A stretch of DNA of 64,000 nucleotides, from NCBI GenBank assembly GCA_964594455.1, contig CAZQLY010000004.1, positions 61,972-125,971 on the forward strand, written 5' to 3'. The notes under the pieces were generated by a model. The model worked only from the letters and a program-made list of their open reading frames with translations, made no database searches and was not told where the DNA came from. Source of the stretch: an uncultured Gammaproteobacteria bacterium. GTDB lineage: Bacteria; Patescibacteriota; Patescibacteriia; JAHIZJ01. Within the stretch, counting starts at the first letter, position 1. Each line of letters begins with the position of its first letter. The translations under genes were made by a program, and so were the position numbers. Positions 5,675 to 62,411 of this stretch are shown here, piece after piece.

Positions 5675-5829
5675 CTCCTTTCGTCTTTTGGTAGAAGTTA
5701 TTTTCTGATTATATTATACCATGAAAAAATTAAGTTATTAACACTTAATAATTCATTGACAGTTAGCCAAATTTTTGATAATAATACCAAGTCGTTCATT
5801 TTTTATTCTTTTCAGGAAGGAAAAGACCA

Positions 5830-11289: not shown

Positions 11290-11490
11290 TTGGATATAAA
11301 CCACGAGATTAAAAGCCATATCAAGGCTAATAAAGTCAATTCCTATATAAATGCTGAAGTGGCAAATAACATTGTTTATTTGAGGGGTAAAATAGATGAC
11401 AACAACGAATACAAAACAGTAATAAATAAAATATTAAGAATCACAAAAAACATGAGTATAAAAAATAACGTTGATCTCAATAACCAATAG
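11290..11490 (+). CDS. small BON-domain-like protein
   Basis: [10 protein letters not shown]...NVDLNN resembles a BON motif. Confidence 0.3.
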
Positions 11491-11521
11491 TTTAAAATGG
11501 TTAATTATTAAAAGAAAAAAT

Positions 11522-12145
11522 ATGTCAAATCAATACTCTACGCCTGACCTCCCCTACCCATATGATGCGTTAGAGCCGAATATAGATAAAGAGACTATGA
11601 AAATTCATCATGACAAGCATCATGTAAAATACACTTCAAAATTAAATGAAGCTATCAATAAGCATAGTGAGTTTTTTGACACACCACCCGATAAGCTTCT
11701 CCAGAACTTAGACGTTATCCCCCAGGACATTAGAGATGCTGTGAGGAATCATGGAGGAGGTCATGTAAATCACTCGCTGTTCTGGGAAATCATGAGTCCG
11801 GATGGTGGCGGAGAGCCTGGTGGCATTCTAGCAGAGGCACTGACTAATGAGTTTGGTTCTGTGGACGAATTCCGCAATAAATATGAAAAAACAGCCGCCA
11901 ACTTATTTGGGTCTGGATGGGCTTGGCTGGTAATCTCAAAAAACGGCAAGCTCGAAATAACACAGACTCAAAACCAAGACACTCCTTTATCGTTTGGAAA
12001 AAAACCGCTCTTACTGTTGGATTTATGGGAACACTCCTATTATCTTAAATACCAAAATAAACGACCTGAATATATAAAAGCTTGGTGGAACGTTGTTAAT
12101 TGGGACGCTATCCAAAAATCATATCAAGATTTTCAAAAGATTTAG
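11522..12145 (+). CDS. sodA: Fe/Mn superoxide dismutase
   Basis: HHDKHH, and [13 protein letters not shown]...AWWNVVNW are hallmark SOD motifs. Confidence 0.95.
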
Positions 12146-17099: not shown

Positions 17100-18290
17100 T
17101 CAGGCTACTCTGTTATTCCCTTCAGAAAAGCCATCGCTCTCCCATTGGAGACGGATAACCTCGGAACCGAAGAGAATCTCAGAAGCGATCTGCCGCAGCA
17201 CCTGGTAGACCTCGTCTTGATCGTCGCTTGCACAATCGGTTGAACAGTAACCGGCCGCTGTCACCATGATTTGCTTGGGGTCCTGATCGTTCCAGATCTT
17301 CAGGTGGTGCAGTAAGCGATCTAGCTCAGTCGAATCTTCCAGGCCGCTTTGCTCCAGGATCTCGCTGAGGATCAGCCATTCACCGACCAGCTCAACCAGC
17401 TTATGGCAATGCAGCTGCCAGAAAGCCTGTTTGGCTCTCTGAGTCGTAGTAGCAGCAATCCAGAGCAGTGCCAGATAAACTGGGTCCTGCCCATGCCGCT
17501 TAATCCAATCAGGCATCTGGCGCGTCAACTCCTCAGCCTTGAGCACTCTGGCAATCGGCGGCTTGCTTCCCCAACCCTCCAGAATCCCCACCAGCCTCTC
17601 ATGCTGCTTGGGATCGCTTGGAATATCAAAGGCGTAAGCTACGTCCGCAAGCTCCTTCCAGCCACCCACCATTTCAGCAATATTGCTTAGCGGGTTGCTG
17701 TGCTCGGGCCAAGGAATCGTTTGTTGATCCTCGACCTCCTGATCAGTCGCTGAGAACCGGCTGCTTGGATCGAGATCCCTTACGAGTCGGGCACTCCTGA
17801 AATGAGCTACCGAAGAAGGTGGAATGGTCTGGCCACCGGAGGTGCTGCCTGTTCCCGGCTTCCTTACCAGAGATTGGCGCTCGTGACTGCTTACTCCACC
17901 GTCCGGTCCATAGAACCGCTGGTAGTAGTGAACTGCCCGGTTAACCAATAGCTGGAAAAAAGCTGGTTCAATCGGTCTAGGAACGAAGCCGTTGGCCCCG
18001 CATTTCGAAGCAGCTTGCCGGTAGCTTTCGAACTCGTTCGGATCATTGACTTCGCCCACCAGATAGATCATGACGATTCTCAGGTTGGGCATTCTTCTGA
18101 TTTCCGAGACCAGCCTTAAACAGTCCGGGTCGCTGTTCTCGATGAAAATCGCCGTCGGGATAACACCTTCGGTCACTTCGAAGACCTCGATCGAGCAAGT
18201 GGTCGAGTAGATCACTTCGTGCCCGATAAGAAGACTACGGTAAACTTCATGCCTGTTCACATCCGAGTCAAAGACCAACATCAGTGACAT
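17100..18290 (-). CDS. hypothetical protein with an N-terminal receiver (CheY-like)-type domain
   Basis: RBS gaggagg. The N-terminus MSLMLVFDSD...IFIENSDPD...RIVMIYLVGE is REC-like. The C-terminal ~270 aa are unknown. GC-rich. Confidence 0.5.
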   Translation of the reverse strand: MSLMLVFDSDVNRHEVYRSLLIGHEVIYSTTCSIEVFEVTEGVIPTAIFIENSDPDCLRLVSEIRRMPNLRIVMIYLVGEVNDPNEFESYRQAASKCGANGFVPRPIEPAFFQLLVNRAVHYYQRFYGPDGGVSSHERQSLVRKPGTGSTSGGQTIPPSSVAHFRSARLVRDLDPSSRFSATDQEVEDQQTIPWPEHSNPLSNIAEMVGGWKELADVAYAFDIPSDPKQHERLVGILEGWGSKPPIARVLKAEELTRQMPDWIKRHGQDPVYLALLWIAATTTQRAKQAFWQLHCHKLVELVGEWLILSEILEQSGLEDSTELDRLLHHLKIWNDQDPKQIMVTAAGYCSTDCASDDQDEVYQVLRQIASEILFGSEVIRLQWESDGFSEGNNRVA

Positions 18291-18707
18291 AGCATACCTC
18301 CTCTGCTGACTCAAATAAAAAGAGCCTCAAAGGAGGCGTCTGATATGGGCCATTCCTTGACCCAGAAGCTGTGGCGAAATTACCCGCAAGTTAATGCCGG
18401 TTACGCTACTGGCTCCCGATAGTCCGTTCTCCCGAGCTTATTCCAAGCTATTTGAGAGAAAAGCGTCCAAATTACAGACTATCGATCAGCGCCTCATTAA
18501 CACATCCTGGCGTTTCCAGAATGGTTCAGCGGGATTGTAGCACTAGACCAGTGGTTTGTCAAGGGGTTATTGTATTATTTCAATTGACTTAAAAATAACC
18601 TTTTGATTTCTTATCTTTGTAACCATTCCCTCCGACTACTGAACGACGGTAGAACCGCGGTATTGAGCGGAAAGTCCAATTTCTGCTTCCGTGAAGTAGC
18701 CCTGTAG

Positions 18708-19787
18708 TCAGATACCCGATTCGTCTTTCCCCGTTGCGTCACGTACCTGTTGTGCCAGCTTTTTCGTATTCCCGTGCCGTAACAGACCTAAATATGACTG
18801 AACGGTAGCTTCTGCCACCTGCTTGGCCTTGATGTTTTTGAACATTCTCCGCCTGGCCACGGTACGCAGTATGCGATGGTCGGGAAAATGCACCCAGCCC
18901 AGAAAATCCACTCCCGAAGCCACGGTCTCAATGGATACTTTGTCAGGGTGCAAATCCAGGTGCAGTCTGTCAGACAAAAAGTTCCTGATAAAAGACAAAA
19001 TACTTTCCAACCGCGCTTTATCTGACGAGAAATACACAAAATCGTCAGCATAGCGGATATAGTGCCGGGCTTTCAGTCCGTGCTTCACGTATTGGTCAAA
19101 CTCGTTCATGTAGACATTGACCAGAAGCTGGGAGGTAAGGTTGCCAAGTGGTAAGCCCTTTCCGTGTTCAATAGAAGAAAAACTGCTGATAATCTGGGCA
19201 AGCAGCCATTGAATGTCCGGGTCGGGAATGTAGCGGTTCACGATTTCAGAGAGAACAGAATGGTCTATCGAGGCAAAGAACTTCCTGATGTCGCATTTTA
19301 ATACCCAGCAGGTGCGGGTATGGTTGCGCGATACCTGGCAGGCGTATTTCCGAAACTGGTTAAGAGCTTTATGCGTTCCCTTGTTCACGCGGCAGGAATA
19401 TGAGTCGGCAATAATGGTGCGGTCAAAGAAAGGATAGAGTGCCCGGTACACAGCGTGGTGCAGCAGCCTGTCGCGGACGCTGGTCTTATGGATATTTCTG
19501 GGCTTGGGGTCGGAGATATTAAAAGCGTGGTAGGGCGAGTGCTTATAGGTTTTTCCTACTAAGTCTCGGTGCAGGGCAAGAATGTTAGCCATGAGATGTA
19601 ATTCAAAGAACTGCACGTCGGTGCGTGCCCGCTTGCCGCGCAAAAACTCCTGCCAGGCGTCGAGCAGATTCTCCACGGAAATGATATACTGAAAAGTGTT
19701 AAGAAACTGAATACGTCCCATGATGTCATATTCTACCCCCCCCCCCGCGATTTTGCCAGTGGCGCAAAAAGTAAAAAGCGCGTACAA
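18708..19787 (-). CDS. diversity-generating retroelement reverse transcriptase
   Basis: RT motifs are present, including LPLGNLTSQLLVNVYMNEF (the DGR-type [IL]GxxxSQ) and RYADDFV. There is no endonuclease or maturase domain. The true start may be the ATG at 19719. Confidence 0.85.
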   Translation of the reverse strand: MYALFTFCATGKIAGGGVEYDIMGRIQFLNTFQYIISVENLLDAWQEFLRGKRARTDVQFFELHLMANILALHRDLVGKTYKHSPYHAFNISDPKPRNIHKTSVRDRLLHHAVYRALYPFFDRTIIADSYSCRVNKGTHKALNQFRKYACQVSRNHTRTCWVLKCDIRKFFASIDHSVLSEIVNRYIPDPDIQWLLAQIISSFSSIEHGKGLPLGNLTSQLLVNVYMNEFDQYVKHGLKARHYIRYADDFVYFSSDKARLESILSFIRNFLSDRLHLDLHPDKVSIETVASGVDFLGWVHFPDHRILRTVARRRMFKNIKAKQVAEATVQSYLGLLRHGNTKKLAQQVRDATGKDESGI

Positions 19788-32523: not shown

Positions 32524-33297
32524 CTAAAGCACAGAATCTATCATCTGTTTGATCTGAGCATAAGGCAGAGCTCCCGATACCGGTATGGTTTCACTGCCGG
32601 CCAACAGTATCGAGTAGGGCGTGCCTGTTCCGCCAGCGGCCGTGGCCTGACCAAGTTGTTCATCAACCTTATTACTGTATTTACCAGAGTTCAAGCAGGA
32701 TTCAAAGGCGGTTTTATCCAATCCTACTGCTGCTGCAATCTCGGGCAACTGATCTGCGCTTAATCCGTTGTTGGATGGCGTAGTCTCAAACAGCTCATCC
32801 AAGAAAGCCCAGAATCCGTCATTACCACCTAATTCTCCAGCACACTCGGCAGCCTCAGCTTCTTTGGGCGCTTTGGAGTGCAAGGAGGCTAACGGAAAAT
32901 GACGATAGACCCAATTAACTTGGCCATCGTATTCTTCTATCACCTGCAGCATGGTTTCGTGAAAGCGCTTGCAGTAAGGGCATTCCGTATCAGAGAATTC
33001 GATAATCGTCACTGGGGCATTAAGATCCCCTCTCACCCAATCTGAATCTGAAACCGGTTGGACTGTTATATCGCCACTGCCGGTTGGACTGGGGGCGGTT
33101 GGAGCCGCTGCTACATTGTTGGTATTGGCTGTTTTGGCACTACCCGAGGCTTCGACACTTGACTCATCAAGACCGAAGACCAAGGCTAACATTATGAAGA
33201 AGCCGATCGTAGTCAAACCAAAGAATGTTACTATCATGCCAGCCAAAAAGGACTTCTTGGGACCCAGCAGTGATAGCATGTTTTTATCTTCTGACAT
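32524..33297 (-). CDS. membrane-anchored DsbA/thioredoxin-fold thiol:disulfide oxidoreductase
   Basis: N-terminal TM helix. CPYC active site in FSDTECPYCKRFHE. Confidence 0.8.
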   Translation of the reverse strand: MSEDKNMLSLLGPKKSFLAGMIVTFFGLTTIGFFIMLALVFGLDESSVEASGSAKTANTNNVAAAPTAPSPTGSGDITVQPVSDSDWVRGDLNAPVTIIEFSDTECPYCKRFHETMLQVIEEYDGQVNWVYRHFPLASLHSKAPKEAEAAECAGELGGNDGFWAFLDELFETTPSNNGLSADQLPEIAAAVGLDKTAFESCLNSGKYSNKVDEQLGQATAAGGTGTPYSILLAGSETIPVSGALPYAQIKQMIDSVL

Positions 33298-33316: not shown

Positions 33317-34261
33317 TTAGTCGATGTGTTCTTGTTGTTTGAATGCTTCCGGACCCAGATCAAGATCTATTTCCGCCCAGATTTTTATTTCTGGGATAAT
33401 AGTTTGAGCGGGTTCGGTCAAAATTGAGACTGTTTTGTAGAATTTTCCTTCCGGCTCTTCATGCAGATTTGGGTCAAAGGTCACGGTTAACACGCCCTGA
33501 GACTCTTTTTCCAACTGGGCAGTGTCTATCTCAGCCGTAGTGCAGGCACAACTTCCAGGAACGCCCGACACTTTTACTGGTTCTATCCCAGTATAGGTGA
33601 ATTCAAAATCATGACTTACTGTACCTCCGCTTTGCTTCAAGGTTCCAAAATCATATTCTCGTTCCGCAAAACTGAAGTCGCCCTGCTTCACTGGATAGGA
33701 ATTCATAGCCATCTGGTCGTTATAATCAGTTTCGGACAAAACCCTACCAAATACTCTGAGTATAAGCTTGGATCCGCTGGCAGCCGACTGATCAGCAATT
33801 GTAACAGTGTCGTCGGGAGCCGCACTAGTTATGACTTGCGCTTGACGGTCGATCGGGCCTACTTCGTTAGGACCGTGCGCTAACGGATCAAAGATTACTT
33901 TTACTTCAAATTCTTCTCCAGCCGGCACAATCTTGTTCCATTTCGACGGATTATTGTGCATACCGAAGATCTGAGTGTTGCTTTCACCGGGTATGACTAT
34001 TCTGGCCGTAGTACACATACAAGATGTCGAGGCTGTTTTTATCACTAGTGGCTCAGTGGAATTGTTTCTCAGCCGAAAACTGTGCTCCACGTTTCCACCC
34101 TGAATATTAATCATCTCCCAATCATGGACTAGCGAATCCACCGCTGTGATCGAACCACTTGGCCACTCCACGTCAGAAGCAGGTGATCCACCCGTTGCTT
34201 GCACTACCAGAAAAACAACCGCTGCCAGCGTTAATCCTGATATAACCAAAAATTTTTTCAT
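33317..34261 (-). CDS. secreted protein with two DUF1573-like domains
   Basis: Signal peptide. Duplicated motif HxFxF...G..PLxI...SCxCTTA (SCMCTTA and SCACTTA). Confidence 0.55.
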   Translation of the reverse strand: MKKFLVISGLTLAAVVFLVVQATGGSPASDVEWPSGSITAVDSLVHDWEMINIQGGNVEHSFRLRNNSTEPLVIKTASTSCMCTTARIVIPGESNTQIFGMHNNPSKWNKIVPAGEEFEVKVIFDPLAHGPNEVGPIDRQAQVITSAAPDDTVTIADQSAASGSKLILRVFGRVLSETDYNDQMAMNSYPVKQGDFSFAEREYDFGTLKQSGGTVSHDFEFTYTGIEPVKVSGVPGSCACTTAEIDTAQLEKESQGVLTVTFDPNLHEEPEGKFYKTVSILTEPAQTIIPEIKIWAEIDLDLGPEAFKQQEHID

Positions 34262-34693: not shown

Positions 34694-35491
34694 TTATACA
34701 TCAATCCAAGATTTAAAATATGGATGAAATATGCGCCAACCGCCTTTTTTACCTAATTCTTCTTTAATATAAGAATCTTTTATCTCAACCATCCGGGCAT
34801 TGAGAGGAATTTTTGCCTTATCTTCGAACCACCAAACTCCGATATCTTTTTCATAAAACGGTATTTGGAATATCTTGGCGTAGGTTGGAATCTTATACTC
34901 TAACATACCTAGTTTATTGTCTGGCAAAGTAGAAAACTTCTCCCAGAATATCCTGGGAAATATTTCAAAGATGAAAAGGCAGCACAACAATTGATCCTGG
35001 TAGTCATACTTTTCGCTGAGGTATTTTTTGAATTCTAAATATTGTTTTCGTCCCTCTTTCTCTCTTTTAAGGTTGTCTTTTTTAGTCCAACTCCATTTAC
35101 TTTCAATGTCAGGGGTTAGTAACCTGGTTCCAGAAAGAAAAATCTGGTCTTTTTTTAATCCGCAAAAAACATTTTTTAAGGAATCAAAAACTAACATGTC
35201 CCATTGGACAATAGCAATGCTGTCCCATTCCAAACTCTTACCTCTCTGTTCGTACCAATCTAACAAGGCCAAATCCCCTTCCAGCCATTTCCAATGGGTA
35301 TCGTCACTCGGGCAGATATAGAAATCGTCCAGCAAACCGTTTAATCCATTACGGAAGTCTGCCGCATCCTTTTTATCACCACCAAACAACCCATAAACCT
35401 TAAGGTCGGGGTTGGTTTTCTTGATCAATTCTAAGTGATTGCGAGTAACCTCCAGCTCTTTGTAAAACCAGTAAAGAATGGCTATTTTCAT
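34694..35491 (-). CDS. hypothetical protein
   Basis: 265-aa ORF with a 4-bp overlap to the upstream AlkD-like gene. Confidence 0.5.
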   Translation of the reverse strand: MKIAILYWFYKELEVTRNHLELIKKTNPDLKVYGLFGGDKKDAADFRNGLNGLLDDFYICPSDDTHWKWLEGDLALLDWYEQRGKSLEWDSIAIVQWDMLVFDSLKNVFCGLKKDQIFLSGTRLLTPDIESKWSWTKKDNLKREKEGRKQYLEFKKYLSEKYDYQDQLLCCLFIFEIFPRIFWEKFSTLPDNKLGMLEYKIPTYAKIFQIPFYEKDIGVWWFEDKAKIPLNARMVEIKDSYIKEELGKKGGWRIFHPYFKSWIDV

Positions 35492-36189
35492 TTCTGCATG
35501 TAGAATTTTCTCTTGGCTTCGGGGAATTTCTCTATAGCGTAACGCAACATAGTACGAGGCATTTTTTTGTAACGCGGTTTTAGAAATTTTTCTTCGGTGG
35601 CCAAATCACGGTTACCTACTTCTCGCAACATCCAGCCTACCGCCTTGTGTATTAAATCATGATCTTCCTGCCAAAGTATTTCCGACAATTTCAATGTACC
35701 CTGAAAATCATTATTCCTAATAAAAGTATAGGAGGCCAAAATGGCAATGCGTTTCTCCCAGAGACTTTTTGATCGAGCCAGCTGGTACAAGATCTTTCTG
35801 GGTTTATCCAACAAGTAGTGTCCGACAATATTTGGCGCTGATAAATCCACCAAATCCCAATTATTAATATGTTGAGTGTTCTTCAGGTATAGATCAAATA
35901 TCTTCTTTTTTGTAGCAGCATCTCCGGCTTTGTAATGAAATATCAGAATGAATAAACCGATCATGCGATGTTCGTGAATTGGGTTTTGGATAAGCTTAAC
36001 CGCGTCAGCCAAGGGCAATTGCTTATACTTCTTGAAGAGTGAGCGCAGAACCGGCACCTTGATCCCAATAAACCTGTCGCCTTCTCCGTATTGACCTTTA
36101 CCAGTCTTAAAAAACCTCTGATATTGTTCGGCCTGTTTCTTATTCGAACGTTTTTTTAACTCCTTAGTAATATTATTATAATCACTCAT
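35488..36189 (-). CDS. DNA alkylation repair enzyme (AlkD/AlkC HEAT-like repeat family)
   Basis: WDLVDLSAP...LARSKSLWEKRIAILAS...HKAVGWMLREVG are family motifs. Confidence 0.75.
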   Translation of the reverse strand: MSDYNNITKELKKRSNKKQAEQYQRFFKTGKGQYGEGDRFIGIKVPVLRSLFKKYKQLPLADAVKLIQNPIHEHRMIGLFILIFHYKAGDAATKKKIFDLYLKNTQHINNWDLVDLSAPNIVGHYLLDKPRKILYQLARSKSLWEKRIAILASYTFIRNNDFQGTLKLSEILWQEDHDLIHKAVGWMLREVGNRDLATEEKFLKPRYKKMPRTMLRYAIEKFPEAKRKFYMQK

Positions 36190-36352: not shown

Positions 36353-37504
36353 ATGCAGGGCATTGAACGAGGTTATTGCAATGTCTGCATTGGGGCTCTA
36401 GTTACTGCTTGGCGCTCGCTCATGGAGGTACCGGCGGCTGAGGCGCTTGAGCAGACTCGTTACGGCCACAAAGCAGACACAATGGGCTTGGATGCTATTC
36501 CCGAGATTATCATCGGTGATCGCATCCGTCAGCACGATCGGCACTCGATCCTAGTGACCGAGGAGCTGGAAGAAACTGACATCCGCCGCTGGCCGACCGA
36601 TTCCGATCGCGTTCGCCAGCCTCTGATGTTCTTCTCTGATCCGACTGATCGGTCAATCCAGCTTGGTCAGTTCATTCGTGAGGTTTCCAAAGATAGACCG
36701 CTGGCCAAGGTCGGAATCTTGATGGGACGCGACAAGGGAGTCCGTGCCTGGGAAGAGCAGTTCGAGAAACCGGCTTCGATCACCGGAGCAACCACCTCAA
36801 TCACCTGCGTGCGTAAGGGCGAGATCATCTTCGCCGTGATGGTGAACTACGTCACTCAGCAGATCATCGTAGCCTGCTCCGAAGGTGTATTCATTATGAA
36901 ACTGCCGCGGTTCACCGATCCTGTTCTGGATTCCATCAACTTGGCTTTTATCACGAGCCACGGCAGGTCCCTAATCTTCCCGCCGGTAGGTACGGTTTGC
37001 ACAACGGCTGATGACTGCCGTCGTTTCGTCACCTATCTGGGCAAGACCGGCTATCCGGAGAATTTCCGGGACAGCATGATCTTCATGGAGGAGCCGGGCA
37101 ATTTCCTCCACCACACTGAACCGGGTGGCCCAGCCAGGATTCTCTATCTTTCGAATCTCCAACTAGGTCATGGCCCTATCGGTTTCGTTATGGCCAACGG
37201 TGAGAAGATCGGTGAGTGGATCCACTGGCTGGCCTTTGCCAAATTCTCACCCAAACGGCTGCGCGTCTTCGAGATCTCGATCGACCGGCCCTACATCAAG
37301 GCTGGAGTTCTGATGTCTACCGCCCCGGCTTACAGTATCTTCCGGGACGAAGACGGAATCACCTATCTTGATGTCAGCCGCCTGCGCAACTTCACCATGC
37401 CCAGCAAGTTCCGTTCCATGCTGGTAGTTACCCAGTTTGATAACGAGCGGATCGTTCACATCATGCGTCAGCATGACTATCGGGAAATCACTTTGACCCG
37501 ATAA
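36353..37504 (+). CDS. divergent FIG/IMPase-fold-like protein, hypothetical
   Basis: TEELEETD and SDPTDRS resemble IMPase motifs. Terminator at 37505-37545. GC-rich. Confidence 0.4.
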   Translation: MQGIERGYCNVCIGALVTAWRSLMEVPAAEALEQTRYGHKADTMGLDAIPEIIIGDRIRQHDRHSILVTEELEETDIRRWPTDSDRVRQPLMFFSDPTDRSIQLGQFIREVSKDRPLAKVGILMGRDKGVRAWEEQFEKPASITGATTSITCVRKGEIIFAVMVNYVTQQIIVACSEGVFIMKLPRFTDPVLDSINLAFITSHGRSLIFPPVGTVCTTADDCRRFVTYLGKTGYPENFRDSMIFMEEPGNFLHHTEPGGPARILYLSNLQLGHGPIGFVMANGEKIGEWIHWLAFAKFSPKRLRVFEISIDRPYIKAGVLMSTAPAYSIFRDEDGITYLDVSRLRNFTMPSKFRSMLVVTQFDNERIVHIMRQHDYREITLTR

Positions 37505-37550
37505 CAAAAAACCCTCGTCTTGAGATGACGAGGGTGTTTTTTTGTCTTAT

Positions 37551-38339
37551 TTAAACCGGTCTTAATGTCCCAGCCCATACTTGCCAAGCAAGTAATGACT
37601 TGGCCACAAGACTTAGAATTATGTAGACAGTTTCGCCATAAAGATAATCGCGCCACTTGCCTACTTTCTTGTATTGCAGAATCATGTTAATGGCAAAGAC
37701 ATTAAAGAATATGAAAATTGACAGGAATATCCAATAGACAAAGTCCGGAGCTCTATTTTCACCACTGCCGGCGTTGAACAAATAAAATGCGATTGCTACC
37801 CACGGTATAGCTCCGGCAATACAGCCAAAAATGTATGAAGTCCAATCAGTTTTGGTGGTTGTTTGATTATGCAGTTCCATCACCCAGCCGAATAAAATCA
37901 TCATGGCGTTCAAGAAAAACATTAGCATCAAACTAATTCCATCGTACATACCAGTCAGCATGGCAATAACCACAATCATAATTGAAGAGCTGAATGAATA
38001 TTCAATCCAGCGGGCATAATTAGCGCCTTTGCCCAAATTCCTGACATACCACTGATAAATTCCAGGCAGTGAGATCATAAGATGGGCCAAAGCGGATAGG
38101 AATAAAAACAAAGCCACAATCGGTCCGATCTTCAGGTCAAAAAGCGTTTCCATGACCGGTGTTAGTTTGTTCTGACTAGCATCAAAATCCACAAACGAGC
38201 TAGTGACCGGCAGGGCAAAATCGCTGCTTAAAACCAGCATCAAAACAGCCTGCACCAAGTGCAGGGCGCCCATAAATAAATTAAATACTCTAAGTTTTCT
38301 AAATTTGTTTTCGCTGCTGGGTTGAATTTGTTCCTCCAT
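37551..38339 (-). CDS. heliorhodopsin
   Basis: Strong similarity along the whole length to heliorhodopsin 48C12. Examples are RWIEYSFSSSIMIV, MMILFGWVME, FGCIAGAIPW and the retinal Lys in YIILSLVAKSLLAWQ. Conserved His/Glu counterion positions are present. Confidence 0.9.
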   Translation of the reverse strand: MEEQIQPSSENKFRKLRVFNLFMGALHLVQAVLMLVLSSDFALPVTSSFVDFDASQNKLTPVMETLFDLKIGPIVALFLFLSALAHLMISLPGIYQWYVRNLGKGANYARWIEYSFSSSIMIVVIAMLTGMYDGISLMLMFFLNAMMILFGWVMELHNQTTTKTDWTSYIFGCIAGAIPWVAIAFYLFNAGSGENRAPDFVYWIFLSIFIFFNVFAINMILQYKKVGKWRDYLYGETVYIILSLVAKSLLAWQVWAGTLRPV

Positions 38340-38382
38340 ATTTTTATAAATAATAGTTATTTTCTACATTATAACATATTTT

Positions 38383-38874
38383 CTATTTTGTTCTAGGGGG
38401 CAAGAAATTTTCCAACCTGGTTTTATAATAATATTTGTGCCAGATCGTATGGTTGATCGAGAAAATTCTCAAAATCGGGATCAGAAATCCGATATACTGC
38501 TGAGCGTTTTTTCTGCCCTGCCACTCATAAATACCCAAGTAATTCTTGGCGTTTGGATCAACCATCCATAGTTTTGTTTTTAACCCGCTCAGCCCGCTCC
38601 AAAACGGGGTGGTCAAAATGCAAATGCGCTGAAACAACCAGTGCATAAAAACATTTGAATCTATCAGCTTCAAACGAAATCCAATCACCAGAACTGTCGG
38701 TTCAGTCACGTCACGATGCAGCCTTTTGGTTTCACGAAACACAACGAAACTTCCAGCCTGATCCAGATCAACGATCTTTCCCAAACGATCTCTTTTTAAT
38801 CGCAACCAAAAAACATTCCACGGAAAACGGAATATGGAAACAAGAATGAGATAAATAATTCTATATGCTTTCAA
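38383..38874 (-). CDS. hypothetical protein
   Basis: 163-aa ORF immediately upstream of the heliorhodopsin gene in the same operon. Confidence 0.45.
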   Translation of the reverse strand: MKAYRIIYLILVSIFRFPWNVFWLRLKRDRLGKIVDLDQAGSFVVFRETKRLHRDVTEPTVLVIGFRLKLIDSNVFMHWLFQRICILTTPFWSGLSGLKTKLWMVDPNAKNYLGIYEWQGRKNAQQYIGFLIPILRIFSINHTIWHKYYYKTRLENFLPPRTK

Positions 38875-38879
38875 CTTTT

Positions 38880-39257
38880 TTAGATGGTCTCCCCTAATTC
38901 ACCCAAATAATAAGTACTTAAGGTTGCTTCAGCTTCGGCTGTGTGAGTGTCCTCTCCTCCCTGCGTAGAAAATTCCTGAGTAGCATCAGTACCGCAATTC
39001 GGTATGATTCTGTCGCTACCACCGGGATGTTGATCAATAAAATCAGTAACATCATAAACTCCACTATCAATTAATAACCAGCAATCGCTGGCAGAATCAT
39101 GTTTTGATAATTCACCCATAGTTAATTGCGTACCGGCAAAATTCTCTACATTTGAATTCGTATTGCTGTTAGCCTCATTGCTTGGAGAATTGGAACTCAT
39201 CCACCAAAGCCCAGCTACAGCTATAACGATAATGCCGATTATTATGGCTGTTCTCAT
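38880..39257 (-). CDS. membrane-anchored cytochrome b5-like heme-binding domain protein
   Basis: N-terminal TM helix. HPGG heme motif in DFIDQHPGGSDRI. Confidence 0.8.
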   Translation of the reverse strand: MRTAIIIGIIVIAVAGLWWMSSNSPSNEANSNTNSNVENFAGTQLTMGELSKHDSASDCWLLIDSGVYDVTDFIDQHPGGSDRIIPNCGTDATQEFSTQGGEDTHTAEAEATLSTYYLGELGETI

Positions 39258-39267
39258 AAAATATCAG

Positions 39268-39600
39268 TTAGAAATAATATTCTAAGACTACTATTAATAT
39301 AGATAAAGAGTTCAGCACTATCGTGGCAATGCTTAAATTGCGGTATCGCTTGGACAATCTTCGTCTAATAATTACAGCAACTATGGCCGGGATCATCAAC
39401 ACCGCTGAAACCCAGAAATAACCGACAAACGCTATAATATACTCACCGGTTTCGATAGACAAATTCATGGTCATCAACAGAGAAAAATATGGGATCAGGC
39501 TTAAAATAAAGGCTGGGTAAACAAGCAAAGTATGGGCTACTTTTTCCTTTGGTTTATTGCTGTCCTTGGGTTTGAGCCGATAAGTTACATCTTTCAACAT
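39268..39600 (-). CDS. 3-TM membrane protein
   Basis: Hydrophobic helices. 10-nt spacing to both neighbours. Confidence 0.5.
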   Translation of the reverse strand: MLKDVTYRLKPKDSNKPKEKVAHTLLVYPAFILSLIPYFSLLMTMNLSIETGEYIIAFVGYFWVSAVLMIPAIVAVIIRRRLSKRYRNLSIATIVLNSLSILIVVLEYYF

Positions 39601-39610
39601 AAAACGTCTC

Positions 39611-40189
39611 TCACTTATTTAGGGTACCTTCTAATACATGGTCTGCGGGCGCTGGATCACCATCGTCCGGCTCCAGAGTCAAAACGTAGAAATCATGATC
39701 GGTTAGATCCTGAGTCGAACTGTAAGTGTTTGTATAAACTCCGTCTTTCTTTTCCACCACGCCCGTACTGATAACATCCAGGGGAGAATTTCTGACAATC
39801 CAGCCTTCGTAGAAGTCAGATCCTTCGGGATCATCTAAATCTTCAAAAGTGGCTAATAGCATATACTGACCCGCATCATATGTGGCCTGAGCAATACCGC
39901 TACTAATACCGCCAGTGACATCAAACAAAGTTCCAACGTATTCATAGACCATCTCGCCAGCTTGCTCTTCCATAGCTTCAGTCATTTCTACAGCATTATT
40001 ATCTTCGGTAGCCTCAACGTTTGTTATGTTTAGATTGGTGTTAGTGTTCAAACTCACCCCTTCATCGGTTTCGTCATCACGAGCAGCTGGCAATATGACA
40101 AAAAATATCAAGGCTACAACTAGAAACGGCAACACTACAACTATCACCGTATTAGTTATATTGTTCTTGGGTCCGTTTTGTTGGTCCAT
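39611..40189 (-). CDS. membrane-anchored extracytoplasmic acidic protein
   Basis: N-terminal TM helix and an acidic ectodomain. Confidence 0.5.
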   Translation of the reverse strand: MDQQNGPKNNITNTVIVVVLPFLVVALIFFVILPAARDDETDEGVSLNTNTNLNITNVEATEDNNAVEMTEAMEEQAGEMVYEYVGTLFDVTGGISSGIAQATYDAGQYMLLATFEDLDDPEGSDFYEGWIVRNSPLDVISTGVVEKKDGVYTNTYSSTQDLTDHDFYVLTLEPDDGDPAPADHVLEGTLNK

Positions 40190-40206
40190 GGGTTTAAAAT
40201 AATTGC

Positions 40207-40701
40207 TTAGTTAAATTTAAATCCAATCAAAAATCTGACAGTCCGGATCACGATCGCAATAGCTGTGCCAATTATTCCGATCCAGAGTACTATTTGCAAA
40301 ACTATATCCAGCCAATCCCAGCCTGGCCAGACTGAGAAATCAAATGGAAAAACCGACAGCGTTACCCACATGCCCCAGATATTCAGGCCGTCAATCAGGG
40401 TCTTGCCAGTAAAAAAGATTGGCCGGATGTGCAGGATTATCAAAACCACCCAAGCAATTATTGTGGCCGTAGCCGTTATATTAACCACTCGCAAAACTTG
40501 GTCCCAATTATCAGTCAAAATCGGAAAACCCCACTTCACTAGATTGTTGGCTATGAAAAGCCAGATGGCGGAACCAATGATCCCGCCAAAAGCATCAGAA
40601 TATTTGAATCCCTTTTTCTTTTTCTTATTGGGTTTTTCTTCGGCCGATTTTACCTCGGGTGTTGATTCTTCCATAACTGCTTCTAAATTGCTATTTAACA
40701 A
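40207..40701 (-). CDS. polytopic membrane protein
   Basis: 4 TM helices and a K-rich N-terminus. Confidence 0.5.
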   Translation of the reverse strand: MLNSNLEAVMEESTPEVKSAEEKPNKKKKKGFKYSDAFGGIIGSAIWLFIANNLVKWGFPILTDNWDQVLRVVNITATATIIAWVVLIILHIRPIFFTGKTLIDGLNIWGMWVTLSVFPFDFSVWPGWDWLDIVLQIVLWIGIIGTAIAIVIRTVRFLIGFKFN

Positions 40702-40833
40702 AACTAAAAATTATATATAAATTATACCATTATTTATCTGGTTTCAGAAATAAGCTGGTCACAAACCAGGTAGAATGTATCAGCTAGACAAAAATCAAAA
40801 TGCTAGCTTTTTGCTTCAAATAATGGTGATTTT

Positions 40834-44032: not shown

Positions 44033-44437
44033 TTAGCTTATATCTATAATATAAGTGCTGATAAATTTCTTTGCGGCGGCAATGGTTTCGTCTTTCAACT
44101 TTGGGTTGCTTTCCGTTACCCACTTGGTAAAGTTATACAGCTCATGAGTATCTACTCGCAGCCATCTATTATTCTTATACAAAAAATAAAAAAGCGTAGT
44201 CATGGCAATCCTCTTATTGCCGTTGCGAAAAGGATGATTCTTAATCATGAAATACAATAGTACAGCCGCTTTACCCTCTAGCCCTTTGTAAAGTTCTCGA
44301 CGGCTAAAGGTTTGAAACGGTGATTTAATGCAAGATTCCAGGATGCCCGGGAATCTAGTATTAAATTCTGGAATTGTTTCATTCCAGGTCATTGTCTCCC
44401 GGGCCAACCGGTGACCAACATACTCGATCTCTTCCAA
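44033..44437 (-). CDS. doc: Doc/Fic-family toxin (death-on-curing)
   Basis: HPFRNGNKRIA matches the Doc motif HxFx(D/N)GNKR. Confidence 0.8.
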   Translation of the reverse strand: MEEIEYVGHRLARETMTWNETIPEFNTRFPGILESCIKSPFQTFSRRELYKGLEGKAAVLLYFMIKNHPFRNGNKRIAMTTLFYFLYKNNRWLRVDTHELYNFTKWVTESNPKLKDETIAAAKKFISTYIIDIS

Positions 44438-44448
44438 ACTAATGGTTT

Positions 44449-44697
44449 TTATTCTTGTCCGAGCAATTTTAACGTCTCCCCGTATTCCTTAACCGTTTTT
44501 TTTACCGCCTTTTCAATATTCTTCTTGCCTTCTTCAGTTAGCTCCAATTCCGAACTCGCTATTTCTGAAGCCGGAATAACATAATTCCTGCCAACTTTTT
44601 CCGCTTTGATAACACCGCTTTTTATTTTCTTAAATACAGCAATACGGCTAATTCCCAGCATATTAGCAGCTTCTGTTGTTGAGTAGTATTTTTTCAT
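44449..44697 (-). CDS. HTH antitoxin partner of Doc
   Basis: YSTTEAANMLGISRIAVFKKIKSG is an HTH. It sits 11 nt upstream of doc. Confidence 0.6.
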   Translation of the reverse strand: MKKYYSTTEAANMLGISRIAVFKKIKSGVIKAEKVGRNYVIPASEIASSELELTEEGKKNIEKAVKKTVKEYGETLKLLGQE

Positions 44698-45805: not shown

Positions 45806-45945
45806 TACTGATTCTACTCATTAATAATGAAAGTGTGGAAAATGCGGCTTGACATTGTAAACACTATATGATATAGTCTACTCGGATGACTTCCGTCTGA
45901 ACTGTGGCGTTTATCGCCGCGTTCCCGCAAGGGATAGGACGGGAG
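45806..45945 (+). ncRNA. candidate small RNA with its own promoter and intrinsic terminator
   Basis: TTGACA, then 17 nt, then TATAGT. The downstream transcript can fold into a three-way junction: P1 cuuccguc/gacgggag, P2 ggcg-uuuau-cgcc, P3 uccc-gcaa-ggga. A U-tract follows. Convergent with the DUF3800 gene. Confidence 0.3.
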
Positions 45946-45947
45946 TT

Positions 45948-46580
45948 TTATTTTGGCCAAACTTGAATATTCATTTCCCTATGTGCAATCATCCTATGAT
46001 ACTTTTCATGATTCCTTTTCTTTTTTAGACAATATCTATTAATCATACCCGCAATATAATCAGCAAGTTGTAGTAAATTATTACTATTTGATCTTTGCAT
46101 TTTCACTTTTCCAATACATTTTTTACCTTCATTGTTTATTTTTCTTCTTAAATAAGTGGCTAGCTGATTTCTGAATTCTTGATTACCGCTCTTGTCAATA
46201 ACAACCGTAGCTTTCTCCAGATCATCGTGAGCATTTTGGAAAACTAGATTACATGCATATTTATAAAAAGAATGCTTGTCTTTAAAGCCGTCTCCCCATA
46301 ATTTTTTTGGATCTTTATTAATAACAATTCCGTAATAAAAAAATTCATAAGGAGACACCGCTTGTAAAAAAGCACTCCTTACTCTGTTAGAGTTCCTTTT
46401 GAAATGGAATTCTTCATTATTATCCCAACCTAATTCATGTTTTAGCAGAGCAATTCTCCGATCGCAGGCTTGGGCTTCCTCATTATCAGAAAACAACACT
46501 AAAGCAACAGTAAAATACCTGCTTGATCCTTCTTTTATTTTTAAACCGGAATCACCGGATTCATCAATAAATACCAACAT
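45948..46580 (-). CDS. DUF3800 family protein
   Basis: The N-terminus MLVFIDESGDSG is the DUF3800 signature. Confidence 0.7.
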   Translation of the reverse strand: MLVFIDESGDSGLKIKEGSSRYFTVALVLFSDNEEAQACDRRIALLKHELGWDNNEEFHFKRNSNRVRSAFLQAVSPYEFFYYGIVINKDPKKLWGDGFKDKHSFYKYACNLVFQNAHDDLEKATVVIDKSGNQEFRNQLATYLRRKINNEGKKCIGKVKMQRSNSNNLLQLADYIAGMINRYCLKKKRNHEKYHRMIAHREMNIQVWPK

Positions 46581-61625: not shown

Positions 61626-62411
61626 TTATTCACCAGTTTCATCTTTCTTTTCGGTCTTTTTCGGACGACCGCGCTTTTTCTTGGTGTCAACAGCGGTGGT
61701 GGTTTTCTTTTCCGCTTTTTCCTCTCCCACGCTCTTCAATAAATGGTTGAAGTGTTCCTGTAAGATAATATTAGTTTGGTGGAAGGCTTCTTCTGGACTG
61801 ATGGTACCATCAGTAGTAACTTCCAAAACCAGCTTGTCATAATTGGTCATCTGACCGACACGGACATTCTCTATTTCGAAATTAACGTTCCTAACTGGTG
61901 TGTAGACGGCATCTATCGAGATCAAACCAATCTCATTCTTTTCTTTTTCTCGGCTTTCTACCGGAACATAACCACGTCCTTTTTCTACCCGCAGTTCCAT
62001 TTCTATTTCGGCTTTTTTATCAGTCAGAGTAGCGATTACCTGATCAGGGTTAGCCACTTCCACGTCACTGCTAACCTTTATGTCTTTGGCCGTTACTTTC
62101 TTTTCGCCTTTTTCTTTGATAGTAACAGTAACCGGCTCGTTGGAATGCGACTTCAGTCTGACTGTCTTCAGGTTTAAAATAATGTCGACAATATCTTCTT
62201 TGACATTCGGTAAAGTCGAAAATTCATGACTGACATCTTTAATCTTCACCGCGGTTATAGCGGCGCCTTCCATGGACGACAGGAGTACGCGACGTAAAGC
62301 ATTACCCAAAGTTACTCCATAACCCGGGTAACACGGTTCAATAATAAACTTAGAATAATTTTCTTCGATTTTTTTTACCTCTATTTTTTCTGGAAGTGGA
62401 ATCGGGTTCAT
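61626..62411 (-). CDS. rpoA: DNA-directed RNA polymerase alpha subunit lacking the alpha-CTD; C-terminus replaced by a short AT-hook-like tail (KKKRGRPKKTEKK)
   Basis: The N-terminal domain and dimerisation region are conserved. The product is only 261 aa. Confidence 0.9.
   Translation of the reverse strand: MNPIPLPEKIEVKKIEENYSKFIIEPCYPGYGVTLGNALRRVLLSSMEGAAITAVKIKDVSHEFSTLPNVKEDIVDIILNLKTVRLKSHSNEPVTVTIKEKGEKKVTAKDIKVSSDVEVANPDQVIATLTDKKAEIEMELRVEKGRGYVPVESREKEKNEIGLISIDAVYTPVRNVNFEIENVRVGQMTNYDKLVLEVTTDGTISPEEAFHQTNIILQEHFNHLLKSVGEEKAEKKTTTAVDTKKKRGRPKKTEKKDETGE

Follow-up and report, generated by a model that had tools for sequence, protein, structure and literature searches.

The locus described here raises the question of whether a heliorhodopsin (HeR) gene and a nearby gene for a cytochrome b5-like protein, both on the minus strand, form a functional pair. 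Both genes are located in a 64,000-nt stretch of contig CAZQLY010000004.1 (assembly GCA_964594455.1), referred to as the window, and all coordinates given for the locus are positions in the window. An earlier note on this DNA had described the HeR gene as the last of a six-gene operon and had raised the idea of a conserved partnership between HeR and the b5 protein. If conserved, the link would represent a new, testable class of partner for a photoreceptor family of which only a few members have a known function. The comparison with related loci indicated that the adjacency looks like the local gene order of one lineage, and not like a functional partnership.

Conservation of the heliorhodopsin-b5 adjacency

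The surroundings of HeR were compared in 84 related loci with flanks of up to 10 kb. Eighty of these came from species-representative genomes, with HeRs that were 58-75% identical to the window protein, and the remaining four were designated L002, L112, L113 and L114. The HeRs of L112, L113 and L114 were 74-77% identical, and that of L002 (GCA_016294925.1), the closest relative on a long contig, was 86% identical over the called gene. For the set of 84 as a whole, the range was 58-82%. In the window the b5 gene lies 0.5-0.9 kb upstream of HeR; the related loci had at least 1.5 kb of upstream sequence in 71 cases and at least 3 kb in 59. None of the 84 loci yielded a b5 domain, whether tblastn, phmmer, a hidden Markov model built from the homologues of the b5 protein or a scan for the HPGG motif was used. 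Open reading frames (ORFs) at HeR loci that contained HPGG were rejected as b5 proteins, all being spurious frames or unrelated proteins.

The search in the reciprocal direction gave the same result. Besides the window protein, only four b5 homologues were found at E ≤ 1e-5 (40-46% identical), and no HeR was found within 8 kb in the three loci of b5 relatives that could be placed. Two of the three had a DoxX neighbour and the other had glycosyltransferases. The earlier note had named beforehand a lack of the adjacency in relatives as the observation that would speak against a conserved partnership, and a lack is what was found, in 84 of 84 HeR loci and in three of three b5 loci. Because b5 is absent beside HeR in the 84 related loci, the pairing looks like an accident of gene order. 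As negative evidence, this means that the HeR-b5 pairing provides no argument for light-gated redox chemistry.

The 163-aa protein (p163) encoded between b5 and HeR was also considered as a true conserved partner of HeR and rejected. L002 was the one locus with a homologue near HeR, and there a 294-aa membrane protein separates the two genes; 26 metagenomic loci of the 163-aa family contained neither HeR nor b5. The 110-aa, 192-aa and 164-aa proteins encoded further upstream had no homologue near HeR at the related loci. In one genome, HeR and a gene of the 163-aa family were carried on the same 312-kb contig (L005/L087) but were approximately 265 kb apart.

No conserved neighbour of HeR emerged when all of the ORFs within 4 kb of the gene were clustered in 81 loci. 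The largest cluster, an ABC ATPase, was present in 8 of the 81 loci, and the smaller clusters included response regulators, MerR/B12-type regulators, a pyrimidine-dimer-glycosylase-like protein and a DUF2177-like membrane protein. This variable neighbourhood matches the published picture. Bulzu et al. 2021 (PMC8612252) found that the neighbourhoods of HeR are enriched in redox and oxidative-stress genes, and reported two-component and oxidative-stress genes near HeR in Patescibacteria, among others. Chazan et al. (bioRxiv 10.1101/2021.02.16.431466) reported DegV and DUF2177 near HeR. In the Nat Commun 2024 survey (PMC11109279), 275 of 448 helR genes were alone in their operon, and the ten frequent operon partners were glutamine synthetase (GS), NAD+ synthetase, photolyase, MerR, TerC, an ABC transporter, SDR, alpha/beta hydrolase, DUF2177 and DUF2238. 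The word "cytochrome" was absent from the main texts of all three surveys, and the rows covered of the neighbour table of Chazan et al. had no entry for PF00173, which is weak evidence.

The window also encodes an Fe/Mn superoxide dismutase (11471-12145, +), a DsbA-like thioredoxin (32524-33297, -) and a DUF1573 protein (33317-34261, -), which fit the redox and oxidative-stress genes published for the wider surroundings of HeR (PMC8612252). The HeR locus is a feature of an already known kind. It provides one more example of the HeRs of Patescibacteria and other monoderms, which mostly stand alone, with variable neighbours and no retinal-synthesis genes.

On the far side of HeR, the window and L002 had a common gene order, DNA_alkylation, TruB, PDDEXK, PBP, PD40 and a large Ig-repeat protein. 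The near side differed; upstream of HeR, L002 encodes the 294-aa membrane protein and the p163 homologue, and an anchored PsbP_2 protein stands where the window has b5. The far side could be taken to mean that HeR is linked to the downstream DNA_alkylation repair gene (35488-36189) and would couple light sensing to DNA repair. The window, L002 and L011 each carry a DNA_alkylation gene 3' of HeR; that of L002 is 66% identical and separated from HeR by a single small gene, and that of L011 is 53% identical and about 2 kb away. A precedent exists in the enhancement of photolyase activity by HeR (PMC9769723). However, just two of the 84 related loci have the arrangement. In the window, the two genes have a convergent 383-aa ORF and a terminator between them, and a TGCTATAAT box of its own lies before the repair gene. 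The order also fits the inherited synteny of close relatives, because TruB, PDDEXK and PBP are likewise common to the window and L002. A coupling of light sensing to repair, proposed by analogy with photolyase, is thus very improbable.

The heliorhodopsin and its probable transcription unit

The HeR ORF matched the Pfam family Heliorhodopsin (PF18761) over the entire profile (positions 1-242 of 242) with E = 1e-103 and 346 bits, compared to a cutoff of 26.7, and the NCBIfam HeR equivalog NF038020 over positions 1-244 of 244 with 357 bits (cutoff 100). The type-1 family Bac_rhodopsin gave no match at E ≤ 0.01 in the Pfam profile search. Six PDB structures matched at E ≤ 0.001 and all were heliorhodopsins, the best being TaHeR (6is6, E = 3e-88), followed by 48C12 (E = 8e-64). 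In the residue alignment to 48C12 (6su3), His27, His86, Glu113 and Lys247 of the window protein corresponded to His23, His80, Glu107 and Lys241, respectively. The Schiff-base Lys247 is encoded at 37601-37599 and the Glu113 counterion at 38003-38001. Glu113, His86 and Lys247 were invariant across 37 relatives.

Because the family profiles, the structure matches and the key residues agree, the identification is correct, and the protein is a genuine, ordinary heliorhodopsin of a clade common in Patescibacteria-type genomes. The earlier assignment to the heliorhodopsins and not to the type-1 rhodopsins was thus upheld, as was the presence of the Schiff-base lysine, the glutamate counterion and both conserved histidines. 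The likeness to 48C12 drawn there stood as far as collinearity is concerned, but 48C12 is not the nearest characterised relative, since TaHeR scores better.

The family is a populous one. At E ≤ 1e-20 the search gave 7,787 HeR homologues; among the top-scoring 120, nearly all that carry a name are Patescibacteria. The assignment of the window to Patescibacteria draws on how the closest homologues of HeR and p163 are named, as well as on synteny. The dataset of Chazan et al. (bioRxiv 10.1101/2021.02.16.431466) contains Patescibacteria HeRs, including the "Patescibacteria"-labelled group B sequence AHB42135.1, in which the conserved seventh transmembrane (TM) segment and the C-terminal motif are visibly common to the window HeR. 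With thousands of homologues, and with Patescibacteria already covered by two surveys (PMC8612252 and 10.1101/2021.02.16.431466), the occurrence of HeR in a Candidate Phyla Radiation bacterium is not the notable feature it had been taken to be. No blh or crt family was found among the 40 window ORFs scanned against Pfam, which agrees with the remark in the earlier note that the window has no retinal-biosynthesis gene. This lack is not a special feature of the locus, since the rarity of blh near HeR is a published general pattern (Chazan et al., 10.1101/2021.02.16.431466).

A positive-inside count placed the K/R-rich N-terminus and the loops 90-111 and 222-237 all on one side of the membrane, and the predicted topology is inverted, with the N-terminus in the cytoplasm. 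We infer that HeR, inserted in this orientation, would bind all-trans retinal at Lys247 with Glu113 as the counterion, and would function as a slow-cycling light sensor that pumps no ions and modulates whichever partner protein the lineage has. The retinal would be imported from outside the cell, since there is no blh or crt gene nearby.

The signals flanking HeR suggest where its transcription may begin and end. The pattern TGNTATAAT occurred six times in the window, at 5713, 22074, 36223, 38368, 40721 and 42755, in all cases on the coding (minus) strand. Four of the six copies were located 20-35 nt 5' of a start codon. The genes concerned are the DNA_alkylation gene, HeR, the first gene in the block of five upstream of HeR and an FG-GAP gene, and this placement suggests that the organism commonly uses extended -10 promoters with very short leaders. 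A hairpin terminator with a 9-bp stem containing 6 GC pairs and a T-run on both strands begins 15 nt past the HeR stop codon. In L002, HeR has a hairpin terminator and a TATAAT box in front of it. Because HeR is flanked by an extended -10 box of its own and, after the gene, by a terminator, and because a terminator and a TATAAT box stand before its counterpart in L002, it is best read from these signals as its own transcription unit, and the single six-gene operon of the earlier note is disfavoured.

The mechanism that we propose is that transcription of HeR would start at an extended -10 promoter of its own, located in the 43-nt gap, and stop at the hairpin terminator. The five upstream genes would constitute a separate, lineage-specific block with its own promoter, encoding small envelope proteins and a cytoplasmic ABM-fold protein. 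The envelope part would consist of two polytopic membrane proteins and two anchored domains, one RskA_C-like and the other an extracytoplasmic b5 domain, and HeR would lie downstream of it by historical accident.

Several considerations weigh against a separate unit and an accidental pairing, 1) the count of six TGNTATAAT copies, as against 3.4 expected, is not significantly above chance, and only the strand and position of the copies are telling, 2) the HeR promoter call consists of a 9-nt motif without a -35 element, 3) there is no terminator between the 163-aa gene and HeR, and the 43-nt gap is short, 4) because no terminator precedes the -10 box of HeR, read-through from the upstream promoter could co-transcribe all six genes, 5) relatives that are more than 82% identical are few and most are on short contigs, 6) a very recent, lineage-specific recruitment of b5 beside HeR is possible and 7) partners encoded elsewhere in the genome are invisible to neighbourhood analysis.

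One alternative reading is that HeR and b5 form a lineage-specific, co-transcribed unit in which HeR gates, or signals to, a b5 redox step in the light. The six genes are on the same strand with gaps of 5-43 nt and no terminator before HeR, and both HeR and b5 are membrane-bound. HeRs have been described as regulators of proteins encoded in the same operon, namely glutamine synthetase, photolyase and an ABC transporter (PMC11109279 and other published reports), and the published enrichment in redox and oxidative-stress genes near HeR (PMC8612252) points the same way. However, the adjacency was found in 0 of the 84 HeR loci and 0 of the 3 b5-relative loci, HeR is equipped with an extended -10 box, a terminator precedes it in L002, and the b5 domain is predicted to be extracellular. 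Glutamine synthetase and photolyase are cytoplasmic enzymes. In one characterised case (PMC11109279), the partner contacts were mapped to the surface labelled with the intracellular loops. Taken together, a light-gated HeR-b5 unit is highly unlikely.

It is likewise very doubtful that HeR recently landed behind the envelope block and that read-through now couples it to b5 and the ABM-fold protein as a light-linked surface redox or haem unit. The group to which the organism belongs is usually without haem synthesis.

The upstream genes and other features of the window

The six consecutive minus-strand ORFs span 37551-40701, with intergenic gaps of 43, 5, 10, 10 and 17 nt (Table 1). The ORFs and their close spacing were as the earlier note had described them, and so was the composition of the block, three membrane proteins, an anchored b5 protein and a 163-aa protein; hydropathy gave four TM segments for the 164-aa protein, three for the 110-aa protein and single anchors for the 192-aa and b5 proteins. 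The ORF of the 164-aa protein has an alternative ATG start at 40673.

Table 1. Genes and putative transcription signals of the heliorhodopsin locus, in window positions
Feature	Position	Strand	Description
Heliorhodopsin (HeR)	37551..38339	-	262 aa; PF18761 and NF038020 matches
163-aa protein (p163)	38383..38874	-	basic, probably cytoplasmic; ABM/YdhR-like ferredoxin fold (weak matches)
Cytochrome b5-like protein	38880..39257	-	125 aa; TM anchor at residues 3-21, Asn/Ser-rich linker, acidic b5 domain
110-aa membrane protein	39268..39600	-	3 predicted TM segments (hydropathy); no family
192-aa RskA_C-like protein	39611..40189	-	N-terminal TM anchor and acidic extracytoplasmic domain (predicted)
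164-aa membrane protein	40207..40701	-	about 4 TM segments (hydropathy), no family; TTG start at 40701
Bidirectional hairpin terminator	37511..37535	both strands	common to HeR (-) and the convergent 383-aa ORF (+)
Extended -10 box TGTTATAAT	38368..38376	-	inside the 43-nt gap, 28 nt 5' of the HeR ATG
Extended -10 box TGGTATAAT	40721..40729	-	head of the five-gene block; 20 nt 5' of the TTG at 40701

The convergent 383-aa ORF (36353-37504), which belongs to no family, is located between the DNA_alkylation gene and HeR and is the sole gene of this stretch on the plus strand. The 2-kb bin that holds it has a G+C content of 0.477, compared to 0.38-0.41 in the adjacent bins, and L002 carries a different, 166-aa gene in the same place. 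The 383-aa ORF is probably a local insertion.

The b5 ORF matched the Pfam family Cyt-b5 (PF00173) over profile positions 2-73 of 74 with 76.4 bits (cutoff 23.7). The axial histidines, His77 in the HPGG motif (codon 39029-39027) and His105, aligned onto the ligand histidines of b5 structures, including that of microsomal b5, with a 4-residue insertion between the two. The neighbour is thus a true membrane-anchored b5-type domain with HPGG, as had been claimed. Because the protein is acidic after the anchor (18 D/E vs 2 K/R), an extracytoplasmic location is predicted for the b5 domain. A DoxX gene is located directly 3' of the nearest b5 relatives, with gaps of 12 and 1 nt (L083, 8001-8867; L084, 8001-8832), which suggests that b5 and DoxX recur as a pair in bacteria with small genomes.

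The two polytopic membrane proteins, of 110 and 164 aa, had no Pfam or NCBIfam match. Each was considered as a diverged DoxX, given the b5-DoxX pairs elsewhere, and rejected since there was no similarity to DoxX. The 110-aa protein had no homologue in any locus fetched. The 164-aa protein had a single homologue, in the locus L086, 5 kb from a p163 homologue, and no HeR was present near the two genes. By eye, a gene pair in the window (44033-44697, -), encoding a small helix-turn-helix protein and a 134-aa protein, resembles a pair in L086 (10603-11287). Together with the homologues of the 163-aa and 164-aa proteins, which are in a different order in L086, this suggests that L086 is a rearranged, related genome region without HeR.

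The 192-aa protein matched RskA_C (PF10099) with 37.9 bits (cutoff 29.4). Only 14 residues precede its TM segment, leaving no anti-sigma N-terminal domain, and 35 D/E vs 5 K/R follow it. No sigma-factor families were found among the flanking ORFs scanned. With neither an anti-sigma domain nor a sigma gene in the scanned flanks, the protein does not fit an RskA-type anti-sigma factor.

The 163-aa protein gave a weak match to ydhR, with 24 bits, under the Pfam cutoff of 27.1. Its AlphaFold2 (AF2) model had a pLDDT of 91.7, and the top Foldseek matches of the model were ABM-fold proteins, including LmHde and HmoB, although these matches were weak (TM-score 0.4-0.5, E ~1e-3). On the basis of the model, the protein is predicted with confidence to have a ferredoxin-like alpha+beta fold, which weakly resembles ABM/YdhR. 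The family is well conserved and comprised about 166 homologues, all hypothetical proteins, with the motifs FRET, GFRLK, HWxFQRxCIxTTPFWSG and KLWMV, in which His78 and Cys85 are invariant. In L086 (7773-8761), the family member begins within the end of a flavodoxin gene. The 163-aa protein is possibly an oxygenase-like enzyme, as yet uncharacterised, that has a redox partner.

The five upstream genes might, independently of HeR, encode a surface module for handling haem or redox chemistry, in which b5 binds or captures haem and, in the cytoplasm, haem or some other compound is the substrate of the 163-aa protein. The b5 protein has both histidine ligands, the fold of the 163-aa protein resembles those of LmHde and HmoB, which degrade haem, the overlap with flavodoxin in L086 suggests a redox partner, and the five-gene block has its own promoter box. 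However, the fold matches are weak, the adjacency of b5 and p163 is unconserved, with 26 loci of the p163 family lacking b5, the two proteins are predicted to be on opposite sides of the membrane, and the two polytopic proteins match no recognisable transporter family. A haem module of this kind is unlikely.

Other features of the window are located at a distance from the HeR locus. A c-di-GMP-II riboswitch (18386-18505, -) scored 60 bits, above the gathering score. It lies directly 5' of a 404-aa ORF without a Pfam family (17100-18314, -) and directly 3' of a reverse-transcriptase gene of the RVT_1 family (18708-19787, -). A DUF3800-IX RNA motif (45888-45951, +) scored 56 bits and adjoins the start of a DUF3800 gene that is encoded on the other strand (45948-46580, -). 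In the 261-aa RpoA ORF (61626-62411, -), the N-terminal and insert domains were matched, and no alpha C-terminal domain family was reported in the Pfam scan.

Comparison with known systems

The best fold matches of the 163-aa protein are ABM-fold proteins, a group to which YdhR, SnoaB and the haem-degrading HmoB/LmHde belong, but the sequence match is below the cutoff and the TM-scores are 0.4-0.5. The 192-aa protein has the layout of the anti-sigma-K factor RskA, one TM segment followed by a C-terminal extracytoplasmic RskA_C domain. It differs from RskA in having no N-terminal anti-sigma domain, and no sigma gene was found among the scanned neighbours.

Microsomal b5 is anchored by a C-terminal tail. 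The window b5 protein departs from the known b5 family in its N-terminal anchor, its predicted extracytoplasmic domain and the 4-residue insertion before the second histidine, and, unlike that family, its nearest relatives pair with DoxX. The Cyt-b5 domain, the HPGG motif and the second axial histidine are common to the window protein, microsomal b5 and Ectothiorhodospira b558 (PDB 1cxy).

In the characterised pairs AbHeR-glutamine synthetase, TfHeR-photolyase and OcHeR-OmrDE ABC transporter, the HeR gene is on the same strand as other genes and close to them, as it is here. The ten partner families named in the Nat Commun 2024 survey recur beside helR in many genomes (PMC11109279), whereas the b5 gene of the window recurs beside HeR in 0 of 84 loci and HeR has its own promoter box. 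The protein itself is full-length collinear with TaHeR (Thermoplasmatales archaeon SG8-52-1; PDB 6is6/7clj) and with 48C12 (6su3), and has the same lysine, glutamate and histidines and, as predicted here, the same topology with the N-terminus inside. There was no noteworthy difference from either of them, and the window HeR is a member of the Patescibacteria clade.

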